56,302 nt of DNA from a virus: UHGV virus genome UHGV-0090450; one strand, given 5' to 3'. The number at the start of each line of letters is the position of its first letter. The first letter of the stretch is position 1. This document shows positions 32,810 to 40,090 of this stretch, in pieces. Below the pieces are notes generated by a model. That model saw only the letters and a program-made list of their open reading frames with translations, was not told the origin of the DNA and made no database searches. The translations under genes were made by a program, and so were the position numbers.

Positions 32810-32858
32810 AACTGTGACACATAAAGCCTCGCAATGGTTTGCAAGGCTTTGAACGCTT
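32810..32858. repeat. about 50-bp hairpin-containing repeat, copy 1
   Basis: ACAAAACTG(T/A)GACACATAA(A/G)GCCTCGCAATGG(T/C)TTGCAAGGCTTT; second copy at 40043-40090, direct orientation, about 90 percent identical. Confidence 0.65.
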
Positions 32859-33005
32859 CTATATTGAGGATGTGACGCGGTTTCGTTTATTTCCATTCTA
32901 TATATTGATGTCGATTTTTATGAATATAGAGCATACGGATAAACTGCAGTGTGATTAGAGTCAAAGTAATAGTTGTTGACTCTAATCATTGCAAAGTGAC
33001 TTTAC

Positions 33006-34073
33006 TTAATGAAATTTATCTCGGATGAATTGTTGCGATGGCTTTTCAATGAATATATATGACATATAGCTAATTGCCATTAATGTAAGCATGAATAAAA
33101 TGAATACCTTGGGGCTGTAAAAAAGATCGCGTCCATAGCCAATCTTGTCAGCTAAATAAACAACAATGATTTGCAAAGGAAAATGTAAAAGATAAGATGA
33201 ATAACTGATATCACCCAACCATTCAATTTTCTTCCCAAAATCGTTTCGTATTGCGCTAATTGATACAAGGAAAAAGATTATGGAGGTAAATCCGAATAAG
33301 ATAATTGAGAATATATCTGCTACTTGCAGGGTAAAGATAACTCCCCATGAGATCAATAGAAAAACACAAGCAAAAATAAAAAATAATTTTGCGCTAATAT
33401 TTTTTATGACCGCAATCGTAATTTTATAGGTCAGACCACCAATAAAGAAAGAGAATGCGCCGATCATTATGGGATTGTTAATTTTGAAAAAGTAGTACGA
33501 CAATGCAACTATTAAAATTGATATGAATGTTGTTTTTGATGTGAACTTGCATAATATAAAAAATATCATGTACATAAGTACTTCAATCGACACGGACCAT
33601 GTCGGGGCGTTGAAGGACCAACCTCGCTCAAATCCCCATGATTGAATCATCAATAAATTCAGAATGGCATGGTAAATGTCATTCATAGGATAAACAAAAA
33701 AATAATTATGACTTTTAAAGAAAATAATTTGTAATATTGCCACGACAGCAAATGTAAATATATAAAGTGGATATAATCTACTGACACGGTTAACTATAAA
33801 AGTTTTTGCTGAGGTTTTATTGCTGTGTATATTGTCAGCGTATAGATAAAAAAATATGAATCCAGAAATCATAAAAAACAATTCGACAGCATATAAACCG
33901 TAATGATAAAAAACGGAAAAAAATTCATAAAAAGGTTGGCGGTTTATGATTATGTCAGATGCAGCATTCTTTTTCATAAAAAAATGTTGCCAATGCCATA
34001 ACACAACGGAAAGTGCGGCAAATCCTCTCAGAACATCCAGGGTATATATTCTCTTCCCAAAAAAATTCGTCAC
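33006..34073 (-). CDS. acyltransferase family 3 integral membrane protein (O-antigen acetyltransferase-like)
   Basis: About 10 predicted TM helices; N-terminus LDVLRGFAALSVVLWHWQHFF; very AT-rich. Confidence 0.85.
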   Translation of the reverse strand: MTNFFGKRIYTLDVLRGFAALSVVLWHWQHFFMKKNAASDIIINRQPFYEFFSVFYHYGLYAVELFFMISGFIFFYLYADNIHSNKTSAKTFIVNRVSRLYPLYIFTFAVVAILQIIFFKSHNYFFVYPMNDIYHAILNLLMIQSWGFERGWSFNAPTWSVSIEVLMYMIFFILCKFTSKTTFISILIVALSYYFFKINNPIMIGAFSFFIGGLTYKITIAVIKNISAKLFFIFACVFLLISWGVIFTLQVADIFSIILFGFTSIIFFLVSISAIRNDFGKKIEWLGDISYSSYLLHFPLQIIVVYLADKIGYGRDLFYSPKVFILFMLTLMAISYMSYIFIEKPSQQFIRDKFH

Positions 34074-34623
34074 AACGAACCTCTTTTAATAAAGTCAAGT
34101 GATAATGAAAGATAAATATTGTAAACGAAAAAACACTGGACTGGAACATATATCTCTGCTTGTAATTTACCCAAGATAATTTTACTAACGCAGTCATAAT
34201 TCGTTCATGTATACCAGATGAAAGTACATGTTCTATGAAATAGGGTTTTGCCTGGAGTTTGAAGGTTTTTAACGATTATACCTGTTTAATCGACTCCCCA
34301 TGTTTTTTGACATTATCCACCGCACACGATACTGGATGCCAGGTAAACTGATTTGCTGGCATAAAGTCACTGAGAATTTTTTACCAACAATATCTTGCCA
34401 CATCTTTTCCCGCACAGTTTCGGCAATAGAATCAGCGGGCAGCGGTCATCAATATTCACCAGACATTGATCTGCCGCACTATCTGACCGGTGTCCTGCTG
34501 AGAATACTAATTTCTTTTTTTGCAAGTGCTGTCCAATCATGATTGGGGGGGGCCGGCGGAGTTGAAACCGCAGGTACGTTGTATGCAATAACGTGCTGCG
34601 GTTTAATCTTATCAATTGAATAC

Positions 34624-35397
34624 TCAAAAATTAGGTGAGTAACGGACCGGGGACATAGCTCCTTTTTTTCTTAATTCATCTGGTATTTTTTTTCCAAGAT
34701 AAAGATTTGCTATTTCAGGTGGGGCTTCTCGACCTTCAAAACCATAGCGAGAACTTTGTGTTGCCTCAAAGTCAGGATCCTCGTCCCAGTATTTCATCGT
34801 AGGGAAATTTTCACGTGTTGATTTGAGCCATTTATCAGCAATAAAAACCCCTCGAACGATACCCCTTACAGTGGCAAGAATGACTTCTGCTTGACTGGCG
34901 CGCGAGGCATTGATGCGCCAGCTAAATCGAACCGCATCATAAAGCTCTGAATCCTTTGCACTTCTGTTAACGGAAATCATTAATGCTTTATGATGAAATG
35001 TTATGGTTTCGGGTTGATATGTTGCTATCAACTCTTTGACATGCGCGGCGCCGAATTCATTGCTGCCAGCACCATTCATGATATTCGTTAACCCAGGGTA
35101 GGCATCAATAAGTGCTGCTTCAACTTCGTACGCCGTCTTTTCATCAGTCATTCCATGTCGATGGATTACATGGATAACTTCAAGTCCCGCTAATCTTATT
35201 TCTCTGATTTGCTTTAGCTTGTTGCTCAGTAACTCGTCATCATCAGCCGCTGCCACTTCACCGCGCATATGGGCAAATACGCGGTTACCTTTGCCTTTCC
35301 CTACATAGAAGGTGCTTCCGTCCCTAGGATCAATCAATCGGTATACATACCAGCCAAGGTGTTCAATTACTCCAGAAGGAAACTCAGTAATATCCAT
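34624..35397 (-). CDS. GIY-YIG-like nuclease domain protein
   Basis: N-terminal [30 protein letters not shown] resembles the GIY...YIG core; ATG at 35397, track ORF starts at a TTG at 35448. Confidence 0.55.
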
Positions 35398-38597: not shown

Positions 38598-39120
38598 TAC
38601 TGCCCTCCTTCATTCATGACGATAAAGGAAGCGAAACTGAATGCGCCTCCCAGCACATTGCTACCACGCCCTAGTGTGTGGCGTTAAGAATCATCTGATA
38701 GTGCATCAGCCACTTGAGATGAGCAACACTTGATCAACAAAAATTGGCAATAGTGTATCCGTAATCCACAGTAAAATGCTCACGCTCCAGTAGATCCCGA
38801 AATGAAGTCTGCTCACTAAACGTCTGCGGGGACTTCGCTACAGGTTTGCAGACGAGGCATAAGTATCTTAACTTTTGGCGACTGGGCAGTGATATATAAA
38901 GGTGAGATTAAAATTATCCGAATGATTTCATCGCTATGATATTAGCCTTGATCAGTATCATAAAACCTAAGCCGTCCGCTGCTCGATCACAGTAACCGTG
39001 TTATTCATGGCCTGTCTGCAACCAAGCTTTCTTAGATCAGTGTGTGTTGAACAATGGGGGAACAGGTCATCATAAAGGCACTTAGGGATTTAAATTCCGA
39101 AAGTGCCTCTTATTAATTTT

Positions 39121-39657
39121 TTACTTAACAAGTTTAATTGTTATGCCTGAGTTAGGGCCAGGAGGAACGCCTAATGCTGTATCTACACCTGGGTTATTAC
39201 GTAAATCATCAAGAATTTCTTCCGGTCGGAACTTTTTCCCGATAACAGCTTGAGATTCAGGGCGTGGATTTTCTGAGTGTCTTGCTCGGTAAGCTTCAAC
39301 AAATTCAATTCCTTCTGCTATTGCTCGCGAGCTCAAGCCTCGGGCAAATAAACGATTGAATTCTCCTTCAGCTAAAGTTCGAGCGGCTGTGTGAGGAACT
39401 TTAGCCTGAATTATCTCAGTGCTATTAGGCTTTCTTCTAGGATAATGGGTGGCCAGTAATCCTCTATTTAGGATTTCTTGCTCAAGCCATGCATCATCAT
39501 GTTGAGATGCTTCTTCTAACAAAGAAGGCCACACAGTCTTACCTTGAGCAGTAAGAAAATTGCTTAAATAAAAACTGTTATTTTCTTTATCAAATTCAAT
39601 TTCTTTAAGCATAAATTTTTTGGTTGAATCATCCAAATCAATATAATTTAAAGACAT
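39121..39657 (-). CDS. hypothetical protein (178 aa)
   Basis: ATG at 39657 (MSLNYIDLDD) preceded by GAGGG; track ORF starts at 39711; palindromic operator-like sequence upstream. Confidence 0.5.
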   Translation of the reverse strand: MSLNYIDLDDSTKKFMLKEIEFDKENNSFYLSNFLTAQGKTVWPSLLEEASQHDDAWLEQEILNRGLLATHYPRRKPNSTEIIQAKVPHTAARTLAEGEFNRLFARGLSSRAIAEGIEFVEAYRARHSENPRPESQAVIGKKFRPEEILDDLRNNPGVDTALGVPPGPNSGITIKLVK

Positions 39658-40042
39658 AAAACCCTCTGCTATATGTAGAAAGAAAACTCCAACCGCACTA
39701 TTAAATTGCAAACCATCTTAAGCAATCATATCTTTTGATGCAAAAGGAAAATTTACCTTTTGCAAAAAGGTTTTTCTTATACCATGAAGTCAGCCCTAGT
39801 ATGGTAACGCACTCACTTGGGCCCTATTGATTAAGACAGCGATAGGTAAGTCATATTTTTATAAGTTATAAGAGCAACTGCGAACTTCCGCTCTTCGCTC
39901 ATAACAGACATAAACTTCAGTTATGGCATAAAGGTATGCATGCTGGGTGGGGAAAGTATGAAGGAAAAGAAGACTGCTGCGCCGTTTGTCGTCACGTTTA
40001 TCTTCATTGGCTATGCAAGTCGTAATACAAGGTGGGACAAAA

Positions 40043-40090
40043 CTGAGACACATAAGGCCTCGCAATGGCTTGCAAGGCTTTACATGTTTT
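40043..40090. repeat. about 50-bp hairpin-containing repeat, copy 2
   Basis: Matches 32810-32858. Confidence 0.65.

Follow-up and report, generated by a model that had tools for sequence, protein, structure and literature searches.

The stretch of DNA analysed here, referred to as the window, comprises 56,302 nucleotides of UHGV virus genome UHGV-0090450 and is derived from a thrW-integrating, SfV-like prophage. The last of the late genes encodes a tail-fibre assembly protein (Table 1), and the 3' end of this gene aligns with tfa of phage mEp213. The true right end of the prophage is attR, where an attP-derived arm meets a 3' fragment of thrW, the "tRNA att fragment" of the initial annotation. 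The thrW 3' end, with its core at 40179-40203, is unique in the window, the att type is identical to the one annotated in mEp213, and ARAGORN found no complete tRNA. Two direct repeats bracket the DNA in between; copy 2 adjoins attR, whereas copy 1 lies 7.2 kb from att.

Table 1. Features from the last late gene to the right end of the prophage, in window coordinates
Feature	Position	Strand	Remarks
Tail-fibre assembly gene, last late gene	32305..32745	+	Pfam Caudo_TAP, E=9.5e-21
Copy 1, hairpin element, "class C" allele	32792..32869	.	Hairpin 32823-32850, inner 12-bp stem only
Acyltransferase_3 family gene (Acyl_transf_3)	33006-34073	-	PF01757, E=7.5e-25; G+C ~0.32
Second hairpin family, first copy (CCGCAG..ACGT..GTATGCAA..ACGTGCTGCGG)	34568..34603	.	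Downstream of GIY-YIG gene
GIY-YIG nuclease gene	34624-35448	-	Pfam LEM-3_GIY-YIG; PADLOC PD-T4-3, E=3.8e-140, full length
Cassette slot "left flank"	35589..35752	.	Opens with copy 2 of the second hairpin family, ~35589-35625
TC-type arm, GTCTGCTATGTGCCAGAAGCGGA	35753..35775	+	Left cassette boundary
854-aa AAA_13/SMC-type ATPase gene	36033..38597	-	Main cassette gene; Pfam; PADLOC PDLC04893, 1059 bits
196-aa ORF	39121..39711	-	Second cassette gene; RefSeq: hypothetical protein in L004 and L009
AG-type arm, GTCTGTTATGAGCGAAGAGCGGA on the - strand	39887..39909	-	Right cassette boundary
"Right flank"	39910..40021	.	Conserved; common to lambda and phage 21
Copy 2, hairpin element, "class A" allele	40022..40100	.	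Hairpin 40054-40081
attP-derived arm and thrW 3' fragment (attR)	40101..40205	+	True right prophage end

The gene content between the copies is as originally claimed, with an acyltransferase, a GIY-YIG nuclease, an ATPase and hypothetical genes, all on the - strand (Pfam). The G+C content drops from ~0.56 to 0.32 exactly at copy 1 and is 0.32-0.50 over the cargo, versus 0.55-0.58 in the tail genes. The acyltransferase gene is kept in sister prophages L005-L008 and, judged by its sequence, is a candidate for O-antigen-acetylase-like lysogenic conversion. The GIY-YIG product matches the anti-phage defence protein PD-T4-3 and the ATPase matches the candidate defence family PDC-S06 (both by PADLOC); the ATPase cassette is 99.86% identical in a P2-like prophage, where it lies between genes G and FI. 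The 196-aa ORF had no match in Pfam or PADLOC, and neither search revealed a recombinase gene within the 7-kb block. A 50-aa ORF at 39940-40092 overlaps the right flank and is probably spurious; a 16-nt indel relative to lambda falls inside it.

A second hairpin family is also present within the cargo. Its first copy matches lambda 22573-22608 and 24162-24195, which are repeats on either side of ea47, and the left flank that opens with its other copy has 85.6% identity to lambda 24162-24348 and 82.8% to phage 21. Since the PD-T4-3 gene here and the ea47 gene of lambda both lie between members of this family, single cargo units with a hairpin on either side recur.

The repeat pair and its predicted fold

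The two direct repeats, reported initially as ~50 bp long, are real and slightly larger than that. A repeat search returned one two-copy family in the window, pairing 32798-32869 with 40029-40100 over 72 nt at 79% identity, and BLAST between relatives pushed the left edge of the copies out to 32792 and 40022. Within the core (32810-32853 versus 40041-40084), 39 of 44 positions are identical, the longest unbroken identity being 12 nt. A degenerate 35-nt pattern had exactly two sites in the 56-kb window and no matches in 100 shuffles. The copies share the same orientation at a distance of 7231 bp, with copy 1 beginning ~47 nt past the stop codon of the tail-fibre assembly gene.

Each copy forms an imperfect hairpin, as had been noted, of the form AA(A/G)GCCTCGCAA-TGG(T/C)-TTGCAAGGCTTT, with a single C.A mismatch on the + strand that becomes a G.U pair on the - strand. 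The predicted - strand energy is -21.5 kcal/mol for both copies (z = -2.8 and -3.7). Copy 1 has the better predicted fold on the - strand and has lost the outer tier of the stem; in copy 2, a two-tier 17-bp stem, whose outer tier pairs 40046-40053 with 40082-40089, is predicted through G.U pairs on the int-sense (-) strand only. The stem is present in all 47 variants and ranges from 12 to 17 bp in copies 1 and 2. Among class A and C variants the - strand folds better in 17 of 18, and among class B variants the + strand does so in 27 of 29, so the hairpin is kept on both strands.

The predicted folds of both copies contain the GC-rich stem-loop expected of an intrinsic terminator. The unit is A-rich on the left and T-rich on the right of a near-palindromic GC-rich stem, and this layout, as modelled, corresponds to that of a two-way intrinsic terminator or an RNA 3'-end hairpin; of the functions first suggested for the repeats, that of terminators agrees with this predicted fold and form. 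The - strand of copy 2 was also detected by a consensus terminator scan. The tails are mediocre as U-tracts on both strands of copy 1 (UUUGAACG on the + strand, UUUAUGUGU on the - strand) and on the - strand of copy 2 (CUUAUGUGU); the + strand tail of copy 2 is UUUACAUGUUUU. Covariation is weak, with compensatory change in 2 of 11 pairs and a covariation term of -0.46, and the conserved sequence could therefore function at the DNA level, for example as a protein-binding site, rather than as RNA structure. An Rfam search with the hairpin element gave no match.

A hairpin shared among lambdoid phages

By sequence comparison, copies 1 and 2 are two alleles of one conserved intergenic lambdoid hairpin. 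Copy 2 and ~100 nt of its left-hand flank align collinearly with lambda 27283-27508 and phage 21; the hairpin itself corresponds to lambda 27471-27508, just past tI/sib. The element was found in 75 phage records and in at least 120 IMG/VR stretches, and it is common to phages of differing att/int type (lambda, 21, the thrW phages and the P22-like JEP4). Of 5426 E. coli genomes searched, 4048 contained the element, with 1-4 places per genome (median 1), and all contexts inspected were phage or prophage. In relatives free of cargo, only one copy is present, and it lies between tfa and attP. For example, the order in mEp213 is the tfa stop, 13 nt, the hairpin, a thrW-type attP and int(-), and JEP4 has the same layout after its tailspike module, the one copy in each lying between the last late gene and attP-int. 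SfII (KC736978) also has one copy, in the order int(-), attP and then the hairpin, which is annotated there as a rho-independent terminator. The copy 2 region from 40033 to 40205, including the thrW attP, is 96% identical to the SfII/SfV attP region.

Both copies are kept orthologously in sister prophages that carry five different cassettes. An independently arranged prophage, L080, has two copies around a 1.2-kb cassette, and these are again different alleles (~75% alike). Copy 1 is a hybrid, its left half being of the copy 2/SfII type and its right flank of the mEp213/JEP4/lambda type, and its allele occurs only at the tfa-acyltransferase junction, all 14 instances being flanked by the same two genes. 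A mosaic joint falls in copy 2, where phage 21/lambda-like homology stops at 40092 and SfII-like homology begins at 40033. Because the copies are different alleles and copy 1 is a hybrid, it can be deduced that recombination brought them together and that they did not arise by duplication in situ.

Role of the repeats

From the homology, position, copy number, allele structure, breakpoints and predicted folds, all of which are shown here, we infer termination or insulation and the order of events; on this model, a terminator/insulator role together with a mosaic-joint role is most likely. Overall, we consider it probable that the repeats are conserved lambdoid hairpin alleles that serve as terminator/insulator punctuation and as a recombination joint, and not as mobilisers of the cargo. 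In cargo-free phages, a single hairpin lies at the convergence of the late (tail-fibre) operon with the int-attP operon, and in this prophage the acyltransferase, the PD-T4-3 nuclease and the swappable PDC-S06 cassette have accumulated there between two hairpins. Copy 1, after tfa, would halt leftward cargo transcripts before antisense entry into the tail genes, and may also block late transcripts from the cargo. Copy 2, beside attP, would in the excised phage be the first strong hairpin downstream of int. Since the ~50-nt unit is common to many lambdoid phages, it could serve as a recombination joint between modules, and this would result in two different alleles now 7.2 kb apart. The copies would not mobilise the cargo themselves, the exchangeable part being delimited by separate inverted 23-nt arms. 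Lambdoid late and pL transcripts are antiterminated, such that a simple terminator effect would be blunted. It also counts against this model that the lambda homologue is not the canonical tI/sib terminator but a second hairpin ~30 nt beyond it. We know of no described function for this hairpin at lambda 27471-27508.

A potential alternative for copy 2 only, compatible with the explanation above, is that of a sib-type retroregulator, which we regard as possible but rather unlikely. In the excised phage, read-through int RNA would form the 17-bp stem, RNase III would cut it and the int mRNA would decay; in the prophage state the site would be parted from int, which sits at the opposite end. The geometry is as in lambda sib, a hairpin on the int transcript that is distal to int and becomes separated from int by integration (PMC2951348, PMC5300877). 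The order of int, attP and hairpin is found in SfII and mEp213, with the hairpin of the window at attR, and SfII-type attP regions have no other strong hairpin. The restriction of the predicted two-tier stem to the int-sense strand, and the loss of its outer tier from copy 1, also favor this reading. However, the lambda homologue is a hairpin beyond the terminator-plus-U6 structure taken as tI/sib, a stem of 17 bp is short for cleavage by RNase III, and in lambda-type alleles it is the other strand that has the better fold.

We find it improbable that the unit has no RNA function and is simply a short homology "linker" on which phage recombinases shuffle tail, cargo and att-int modules. Homology breakpoints do fall at the unit edges or within the unit, copy 1 is a hybrid allele, and the unit occurs across differing att/int types. 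However, such a linker would not need a hairpin, yet the stem is kept in every variant with some compensatory change, and a role at the transcript level is indicated by the A-tract/stem/T-tract form and by the location at operon ends.

The direct repeats around foreign-looking, low-G+C DNA could also be read as attL/attR-like or target-duplication scars of a mobile 7-kb element, able to mediate its excision or loss. This is very unlikely. Copies 1 and 2 represent different alleles and share no more than 12 nt without interruption, those of L080 are just ~75% alike, and the block has no recombinase gene. When the junction expected from deletion between copy 1 and copy 2 was built synthetically and sought in the 5426 E. 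coli genomes at a coverage of at least 80%, it was found in 0 of 5426. The turnover of cargo in sister prophages has its breaks elsewhere, at 35775 and 39887: these prophages retain 32000-35775 and 39887-40205 and swap only 35776-39886. The initial proposal of recombination sites is thus not supported in the sense of excision or site-specific recombination of the block. The proposal that they mark where the cargo was acquired holds in that they are the edges of a cargo-accumulating region, but not in the sense of one 7-kb unit. Nor is the repeat the true right boundary of the prophage, as had been suggested, because homology to SfII and to sister prophages continues to 40205, the end of the thrW fragment.

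Even less credence can be given to the unit as a CII-type activator binding site (TTGC-N6-TTGC), i.e. a promoter -35 region. The phage 21 record marks two "CII binding sites" here, one of which (3178-3191) is within the hairpin, and each allele class has a perfect TTGC-N6-TTGC on one strand. However, any TTGCAA/TTGCAA stem with a short loop yields this motif automatically, no -10-like hexamer is found at the right spacing, a promoter scan gave nothing convincing, and the operon-end position fits a terminator better. A dispersed REP/BIME-like intergenic host repeat, a label also offered initially, would explain a short imperfect palindrome in most E. coli genomes but can practically be discounted, given a median of one place per genome, two in the 56-kb window, exclusively phage or prophage contexts among those inspected and the lack of an Rfam match.

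Relation to known elements

As with lambda tI/sib, copy 2 is located in the b region, immediately on the other side of attP from int, and, of the two copies, it alone has the position of sib, distal to int beyond attP on the int-sense transcript. Copy 1, unlike tI/sib, is 7.2 kb from att and has no outer stem. The lambda homologue also differs from tI/sib, lying ~30 nt beyond a terminator-plus-U6 hairpin at ~27538-27585, which we take to be tI/sib and which is absent from the window and from thrW-type phages. The element of copy 2 is the "putative rho-independent terminator" downstream of int in SfII, which has an equivalent in SfV. In SfII, the single copy has the gtr serotype-conversion genes as its immediate left neighbours, whereas the window carries an extra copy after tfa that has diverged, and its cargo is different and composite.

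Morons are autonomous cargo units of lambdoid phages with their own terminator, a concept of Juhala and Hendrix. The cargo here is similar in its low G+C content, its location between conserved phage genes, the terminator-like hairpins at each unit and the existence of cargo-free relatives. Unlike in morons, the punctuation is from phage-wide conserved hairpin families that recur as direct repeats, and one unit also has dedicated inverted arms at its edges.

Inverted arms and their proposed role in cassette exchange

The exchangeable PDC-S06 ATPase cassette, 35776-39886, lies between a heterotypic pair of inverted 23-nt arms, and an arm identical to the right one is found at lambda 27323-27345. 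The arm pair encloses ~40 different cassettes, whose contexts are lambdoid, P2-like (P2 Z/fun among them) or of other kinds and span many Enterobacterales genera, and the cassettes include known and candidate defence systems (PDC-S06, SIR2, kinase, P2 Z/fun). Cassettes are sometimes in tandem with an invariant 18-nt spacing. Each arm has the dyad half-sites TCCGCT and AGCGGA around an asymmetric centre, which is TGTGCCA in 81 distinct arms and TGAGCGA in 69, and 59 of 64 pairs are heterotypic. Positions 1-9 of the arm track the slot, while positions 16-17 and everything inward track the cassette. Junctions were mapped with three cassettes that occur in more than one slot type and with three in the P2 slot, and fall within the arm centre (invariant 7 nt). 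In one contig, an XerC/D-like gene and a gene for a 707-aa tyrosine recombinase lie between an AG and a TC arm; among the relatives of this contig, one has arms nearby and two others have none.

Judged by these sequence features, the arms look like a site-specific cassette-exchange system. We tentatively suggest that they may be heterospecific recombination sites through which whole defence cassettes are exchanged, always in one orientation, between temperate phages that are unrelated and other slots across Enterobacterales. Among these slots would be the lambda b region, the P2 Z/fun hotspot and SfV-like prophages. Cassette exchange at heterospecific sites is known from integron attC cassettes, the pdif modules of Acinetobacter and lox/lox2272 recombinase-mediated cassette exchange. 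The arms resemble these in being short dyad sites of two kinds, inverted around discrete cassettes, with fixed cassette polarity, tandem arrays and junctions within the site centre. They differ in that the site sequence is unlike dif or attC, the recombinases are candidates only, and circular intermediates and empty sites were not seen.

The defence hotspots of P2 and P4, in the accessible text of the papers describing them, are delimited by flanking core genes (Rousset et al. 2022, PMC9122126; PMC13586616; PMC3091744), and that text does not mention "inverted repeat". The window is related to these hotspots in that its ATPase cassette also occurs in the P2-like G-FI hotspot and P2 Z/fun lies within the same arm pair. 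Beyond those papers, the arm motif ties the P2 hotspot to the lambda b region and other slots.

Implications

The repeats themselves are ordinary: conserved hairpin copies that would insulate the cargo of a lambdoid prophage and double as a module-shuffling joint. They help to draw boundaries correctly: position 40205 is the prophage end, and swapping is confined to 35776-39886 rather than involving the full 7 kb. The arm pair is the more interesting lead. In the accessible text of the 2026 survey of P2/P4 hotspots, the mechanism by which defence genes are transferred between elements is described as unresolved (PMC13586616), and the arm sites make it directly testable. If the arms do act as exchange sites, the direct repeats would be mere transcriptional punctuation around the slot, and the arms would be a natural equivalent of recombinase-mediated cassette exchange and would supply the mechanism that is missing from accounts of how phage hotspots swap defence systems so rapidly.

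The two repeats and their prophage setting

A repeat search of the window gave one direct family of two members (72 nt, 79%), at 32798-32869 and 40029-40100, the left edges of which were moved out to 32792 and 40022 by comparison with relatives. Both copies carry a hairpin of the form AA(A/G)GCCTCGCAA-TGG(T/C)-TTGCAAGGCTTT. The initial annotation described two direct repeats, each with a hairpin, flanking acyltransferase, GIY-YIG and ATPase genes. This description holds: 39 of 44 core positions match (longest identical run, 12 nt), a degenerate 35-nt pattern is found only at the two sites in the window and in 0 of 100 shuffles, and the gene and family matches lie between the copies. 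Every gene in this interval is on the minus strand, and G+C falls from ~0.56 to 0.32 at copy 1, the left repeat. A 50-aa ORF that encodes a hydrophobic stretch and is named "putative membrane protein" or "hypothetical protein" in related records crosses copy 2, the right repeat; it is unlikely to be a real gene, having a 16-nt indel within it relative to lambda.

The window has no complete tRNA, and the 3' end of thrW occurs once. Positions 40033-40205 match the attP regions of the Shigella phages SfII and SfV at 96% identity, and the tail genes left of the cargo are, like the attP, of the SfV-like myovirus type. The region is therefore the right end of a thrW-integrated prophage. Its attR ends at 40205, and the suggestion that a repeat marks the true right boundary of the prophage is not sustained. 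The P4-type integrase directly past attR belongs to a neighbouring island, the second in tandem at thrW; in sister strains (L006-L008) a LysR fragment and paoD, in place of this integrase, come straight after the same attR. The island also contains two tandem 33-nt copies that are 94% identical.

Features of the cargo region and its surroundings in the window, with tandem cassette arrays in comparison loci
Feature	Coordinates	Strand	Remark
Copy 1	32792-32869		hairpin repeat, class C
Acyl_transf_3 acyltransferase	33006-34073	-	family match
Second hairpin family	34568-34603; ~35589-35625		direct repeat
GIY-YIG protein	34624-35448	-	full-length match to PD-T4-3 defence protein, E=3.8e-140
157-aa ORF	35453-35926	-	no family match
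TC arm	35753-35775	+	23 nt
854-aa ATPase	36033-38597	-	match to candidate defence family PDC-S06
196-aa ORF	39121-39711	-	between the copies
AG arm	39887-39909	-	near-complement of TC arm
50-aa ORF	39940-40092	+	crosses copy 2
Copy 2	40022-40100		hairpin repeat, class A
thrW 3' end	40179-40203		sole copy in window
P4-type integrase	40370-41584	+	Arm-DNA-bind_3 + Phage_int_M + Phage_integrase
Tandem 33-nt copies	42583-42648		island downstream of attR
Tandem cassette arrays	L040 9054-13586		also L013, L030, L049, L054, L119, L143, L166, L168, L180

A widespread lambdoid hairpin element

The hairpin element has matches in 75 phage records and in at least 120 stretches of IMG/VR, and it is present in 4048 of 5426 complete E. 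coli genomes at one to four places each (median, one). This low copy number rules out a REP-like dispersed repeat, one of the identities first proposed. The repeated unit is a widespread lambdoid-phage element, and the two repeats are a further instance of an already known kind of feature. For example, in SfII the element and int are on the same strand and closely flank attP, and the depositors labelled the element "putative rho-independent terminator"; a second terminator annotated in SfII was compared and is not a copy. In mEp213, a cargo-free lambdoid phage with the same thrW attP, a single copy begins 13 nt past the tail-fibre assembly gene tfa, with attP and then an int in convergent orientation beyond it; the P22-like phage JEP4 has the same layout, with the element after the tailspike module. 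The stretch kept in SfII, mEp213, JEP4 and the window, GAYAAAACTG...GCAAGGCTTT, coincides with the repeat of the initial annotation. Over 32600-40400 there was no Rfam match at E<=1.

On the minus (int-sense) strand, copy 2 is predicted to form a two-tier 17-bp stem, as in SfII and phage 21, while in copy 1 only the inner 12 bp are kept in the predicted fold, followed by UUUAUGUGU. The 47 distinct variants fall into three allele classes: A (copy 2 and SfII), B (lambda, JEP4 and mEp213) and C (copy 1). The minus strand gives the better fold in 17 of 18 class A and C variants and the plus strand in 27 of 29 class B variants; the hairpin is therefore kept on both strands, with a lineage-specific bias. 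G.U asymmetry was accordingly not decisive for the strand of action, A and C leaning to minus and B to plus. Covariation is modest, with compensatory change in 2 of 11 pairs. A two-strand hairpin, A-rich on the left and T-rich on the right, fits a candidate two-way terminator placed where transcription converges. One strand of each hairpin allele also matches the lambda CII recognition motif, TTGC-N6-TTGC, perfectly (32823-32847 and 40054-40078 in the window), and the depositors of phage 21 marked two "CII binding sites" in the homologous region, one within the hairpin. The motif is probably a by-product of the palindrome.

Phage 21 and lambda (27283-27508) have a segment collinear with copy 2 and the ~100 nt leftward of it. 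The sib/tI site of lambda, which lies distal to int, reduces the expression of Int from pL transcripts (PMC2951348, PMC5300877). Folding of the lambda region on the int-sense strand gave two hairpins. The first (~27538-27585), with a 12-bp GC-rich stem and a U6 tract that can pair with an upstream ACAGAG, has the form that we take to be tI/sib; the second (27471-27508) lies ~30 nt beyond it. An equation of copy 2 with sib was withdrawn after this whole-region fold, the repeat being homologous to the second hairpin, beyond the terminator-plus-U6 structure. The thrW-type attP regions, that of the window included, are without the first lambda hairpin, and in them the first strong hairpin past int-attP is the homologue of the repeat.

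The exchangeable unit is an arm-bounded cassette

The repeats had also been offered as recombination or excision sites. The junction expected if cargo were lost by recombination between copy 1 and copy 2 is absent from all 5426 genomes, and the repeats are neither movers of the cargo nor excision sites. In sister prophages, 32000-35775 and 39887-40205 are conserved and 35776-39886 alone is exchanged; the ATPase occupies this position in the window, and SIR2, a kinase, DUF6650 or a "lysogenic conversion protein" occupies it elsewhere. A second hairpin family, CCGCAG..ACGT..GTATGCAA..ACGTGCTGCGG, brackets the PD-T4-3 gene, and two copies of it also surround ea47 of lambda (22572-22615 and 24161-24204). 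Conserved hairpins thus divide the region into a chain of units. The proposal that the repeats are terminators marking the cargo edge is right insofar as terminator-like hairpins lie on either side of the cargo region and at a mosaic joint, but the 7 kb is not one unit. In E. coli Z0117EC0116 (L004), the closest relative of the window, IS1A replaces most of the acyltransferase gene (2566-3263), with both hairpin copies and the cassette intact.

A 23-nt inverted pair, GTCTGCTATGTGCCAGAAGCGGA and its near-complement, marks the two ends of the exchanged segment and has no other copies in the window. A 157-aa ORF runs across the TC arm and the left boundary of the cassette; it is probably chimeric and without function. 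The same arm pair is found around phage 21's own b-region cassette, around the identical ATPase cassette (99.86%) in the G-FI interval of a P2-like prophage, and around Z/fun of phage P2. Lambda keeps the left flank and an intact right arm (27323-27345); its left arm is degraded, with no match found at up to 5 mismatches. By flank homology, ea31 (HNH endonuclease) and ea59 (AAA ATPase) fill the equivalent slot in lambda (24349-27322).

Surveys of IMG/VR and species genomes gave two kinds of arm, with 81 and 69 distinct sequences and near-invariant centres TGTGCCA (tail side) and TGAGCGA (att side). The pairs are heterotypic in 59 of 64 cases and enclose ~40 different cassettes in lambdoid, P2-like and other contexts; at least eight further types of outer flank were seen. 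Many Enterobacterales genera, and a few other Gammaproteobacteria, have correctly paired arms. Three cassettes are common to contexts with and without the att-side hairpin, two of them shared by a lambdoid and a P2-type slot. An apparent occurrence of cassettes in both orientations was an artefact of loose arm typing; strict typing gave 0 opposite and 30 same-orientation pairs. Where cassettes stand in tandem, the back-to-back AG-to-TC gap is exactly 18 nt (14/14, nine spacer sequences). In L046 and L193, several AG arms follow one another.

Origin of the two copies

A recent in-place duplication was rejected, the copies being distinct alleles that are each conserved orthologously. Five sister prophages with different cassettes keep both copies, each in its own form. 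The left half of copy 1 is like class A and its right flank, GAACGCTTCTATATTGAG, is like class B GTGCTCTTCTATGCTGAG, so copy 1 is a hybrid allele; in 14 of 14 instances it is restricted to the junction of this tfa with this acyltransferase. Copy 2 is a mosaic joint: homology to phage 21 and lambda runs as far as 40092, and SfII homology begins at 40033. In L080, a thrW prophage of independent arrangement, a class B and a class A copy likewise occur, only 1.5 kb apart on either side of a small cassette, with a different acyltransferase outside the two. Phages sharing the hairpin unit may recombine at the point where tail and att converge, so that cargo would build up there, and such recombination would leave one hairpin allele on either side of it. 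Build-up through recombination at the shared unit is the simplest reading, the exact path of which we infer.

How cassettes may be exchanged

Each arm is a small dyad, TCCGCT...AGCGGA. Arm positions 1-9 track the slot and positions 16-17 and inward track the cassette; every junction therefore falls in the invariant centre, where incoming and resident DNA share only ~11-15 bp. This is short for RecA- or Red-type recombination. Junctions in the arm centre are the outcome that would be expected of exchange at paired heterospecific recombinase sites. A search for a recombinase acting on the arms gave one suggestive contig, IMGVR_UViG_3300031419_000378, and no assignment. In this contig (L023 2776-6701, the same as L193 4226-8151), genes for a UmuD-like protein, a 335-aa XerC/D-like recombinase and a 707-aa tyrosine recombinase, the last ending 5 nt before the TC arm, replace the usual 18-nt AG-TC spacer. 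Relatives of the recombinase pair are inconsistent, with arms nearby in L195 and none in L194 or L196.

The accessible portions of the P2 and hotspot papers make no mention of the arm motif; Nilsson et al. 2004 (Mol Biol Evol 21:1), to judge by its title, may hold relevant earlier work on P2. The term "inverted repeat" is absent from the accessible P2/P4 hotspot texts (PMC9122126; PMC13586616; PMC3091744), and a further text, in its accessible passages, describes only att-site direct repeats. The mechanism by which defence genes are transferred between elements has been called unresolved (PMC13586616). The part of this region that deserves follow-up is the arm-bounded cassette slot, rather than the hairpin repeats.
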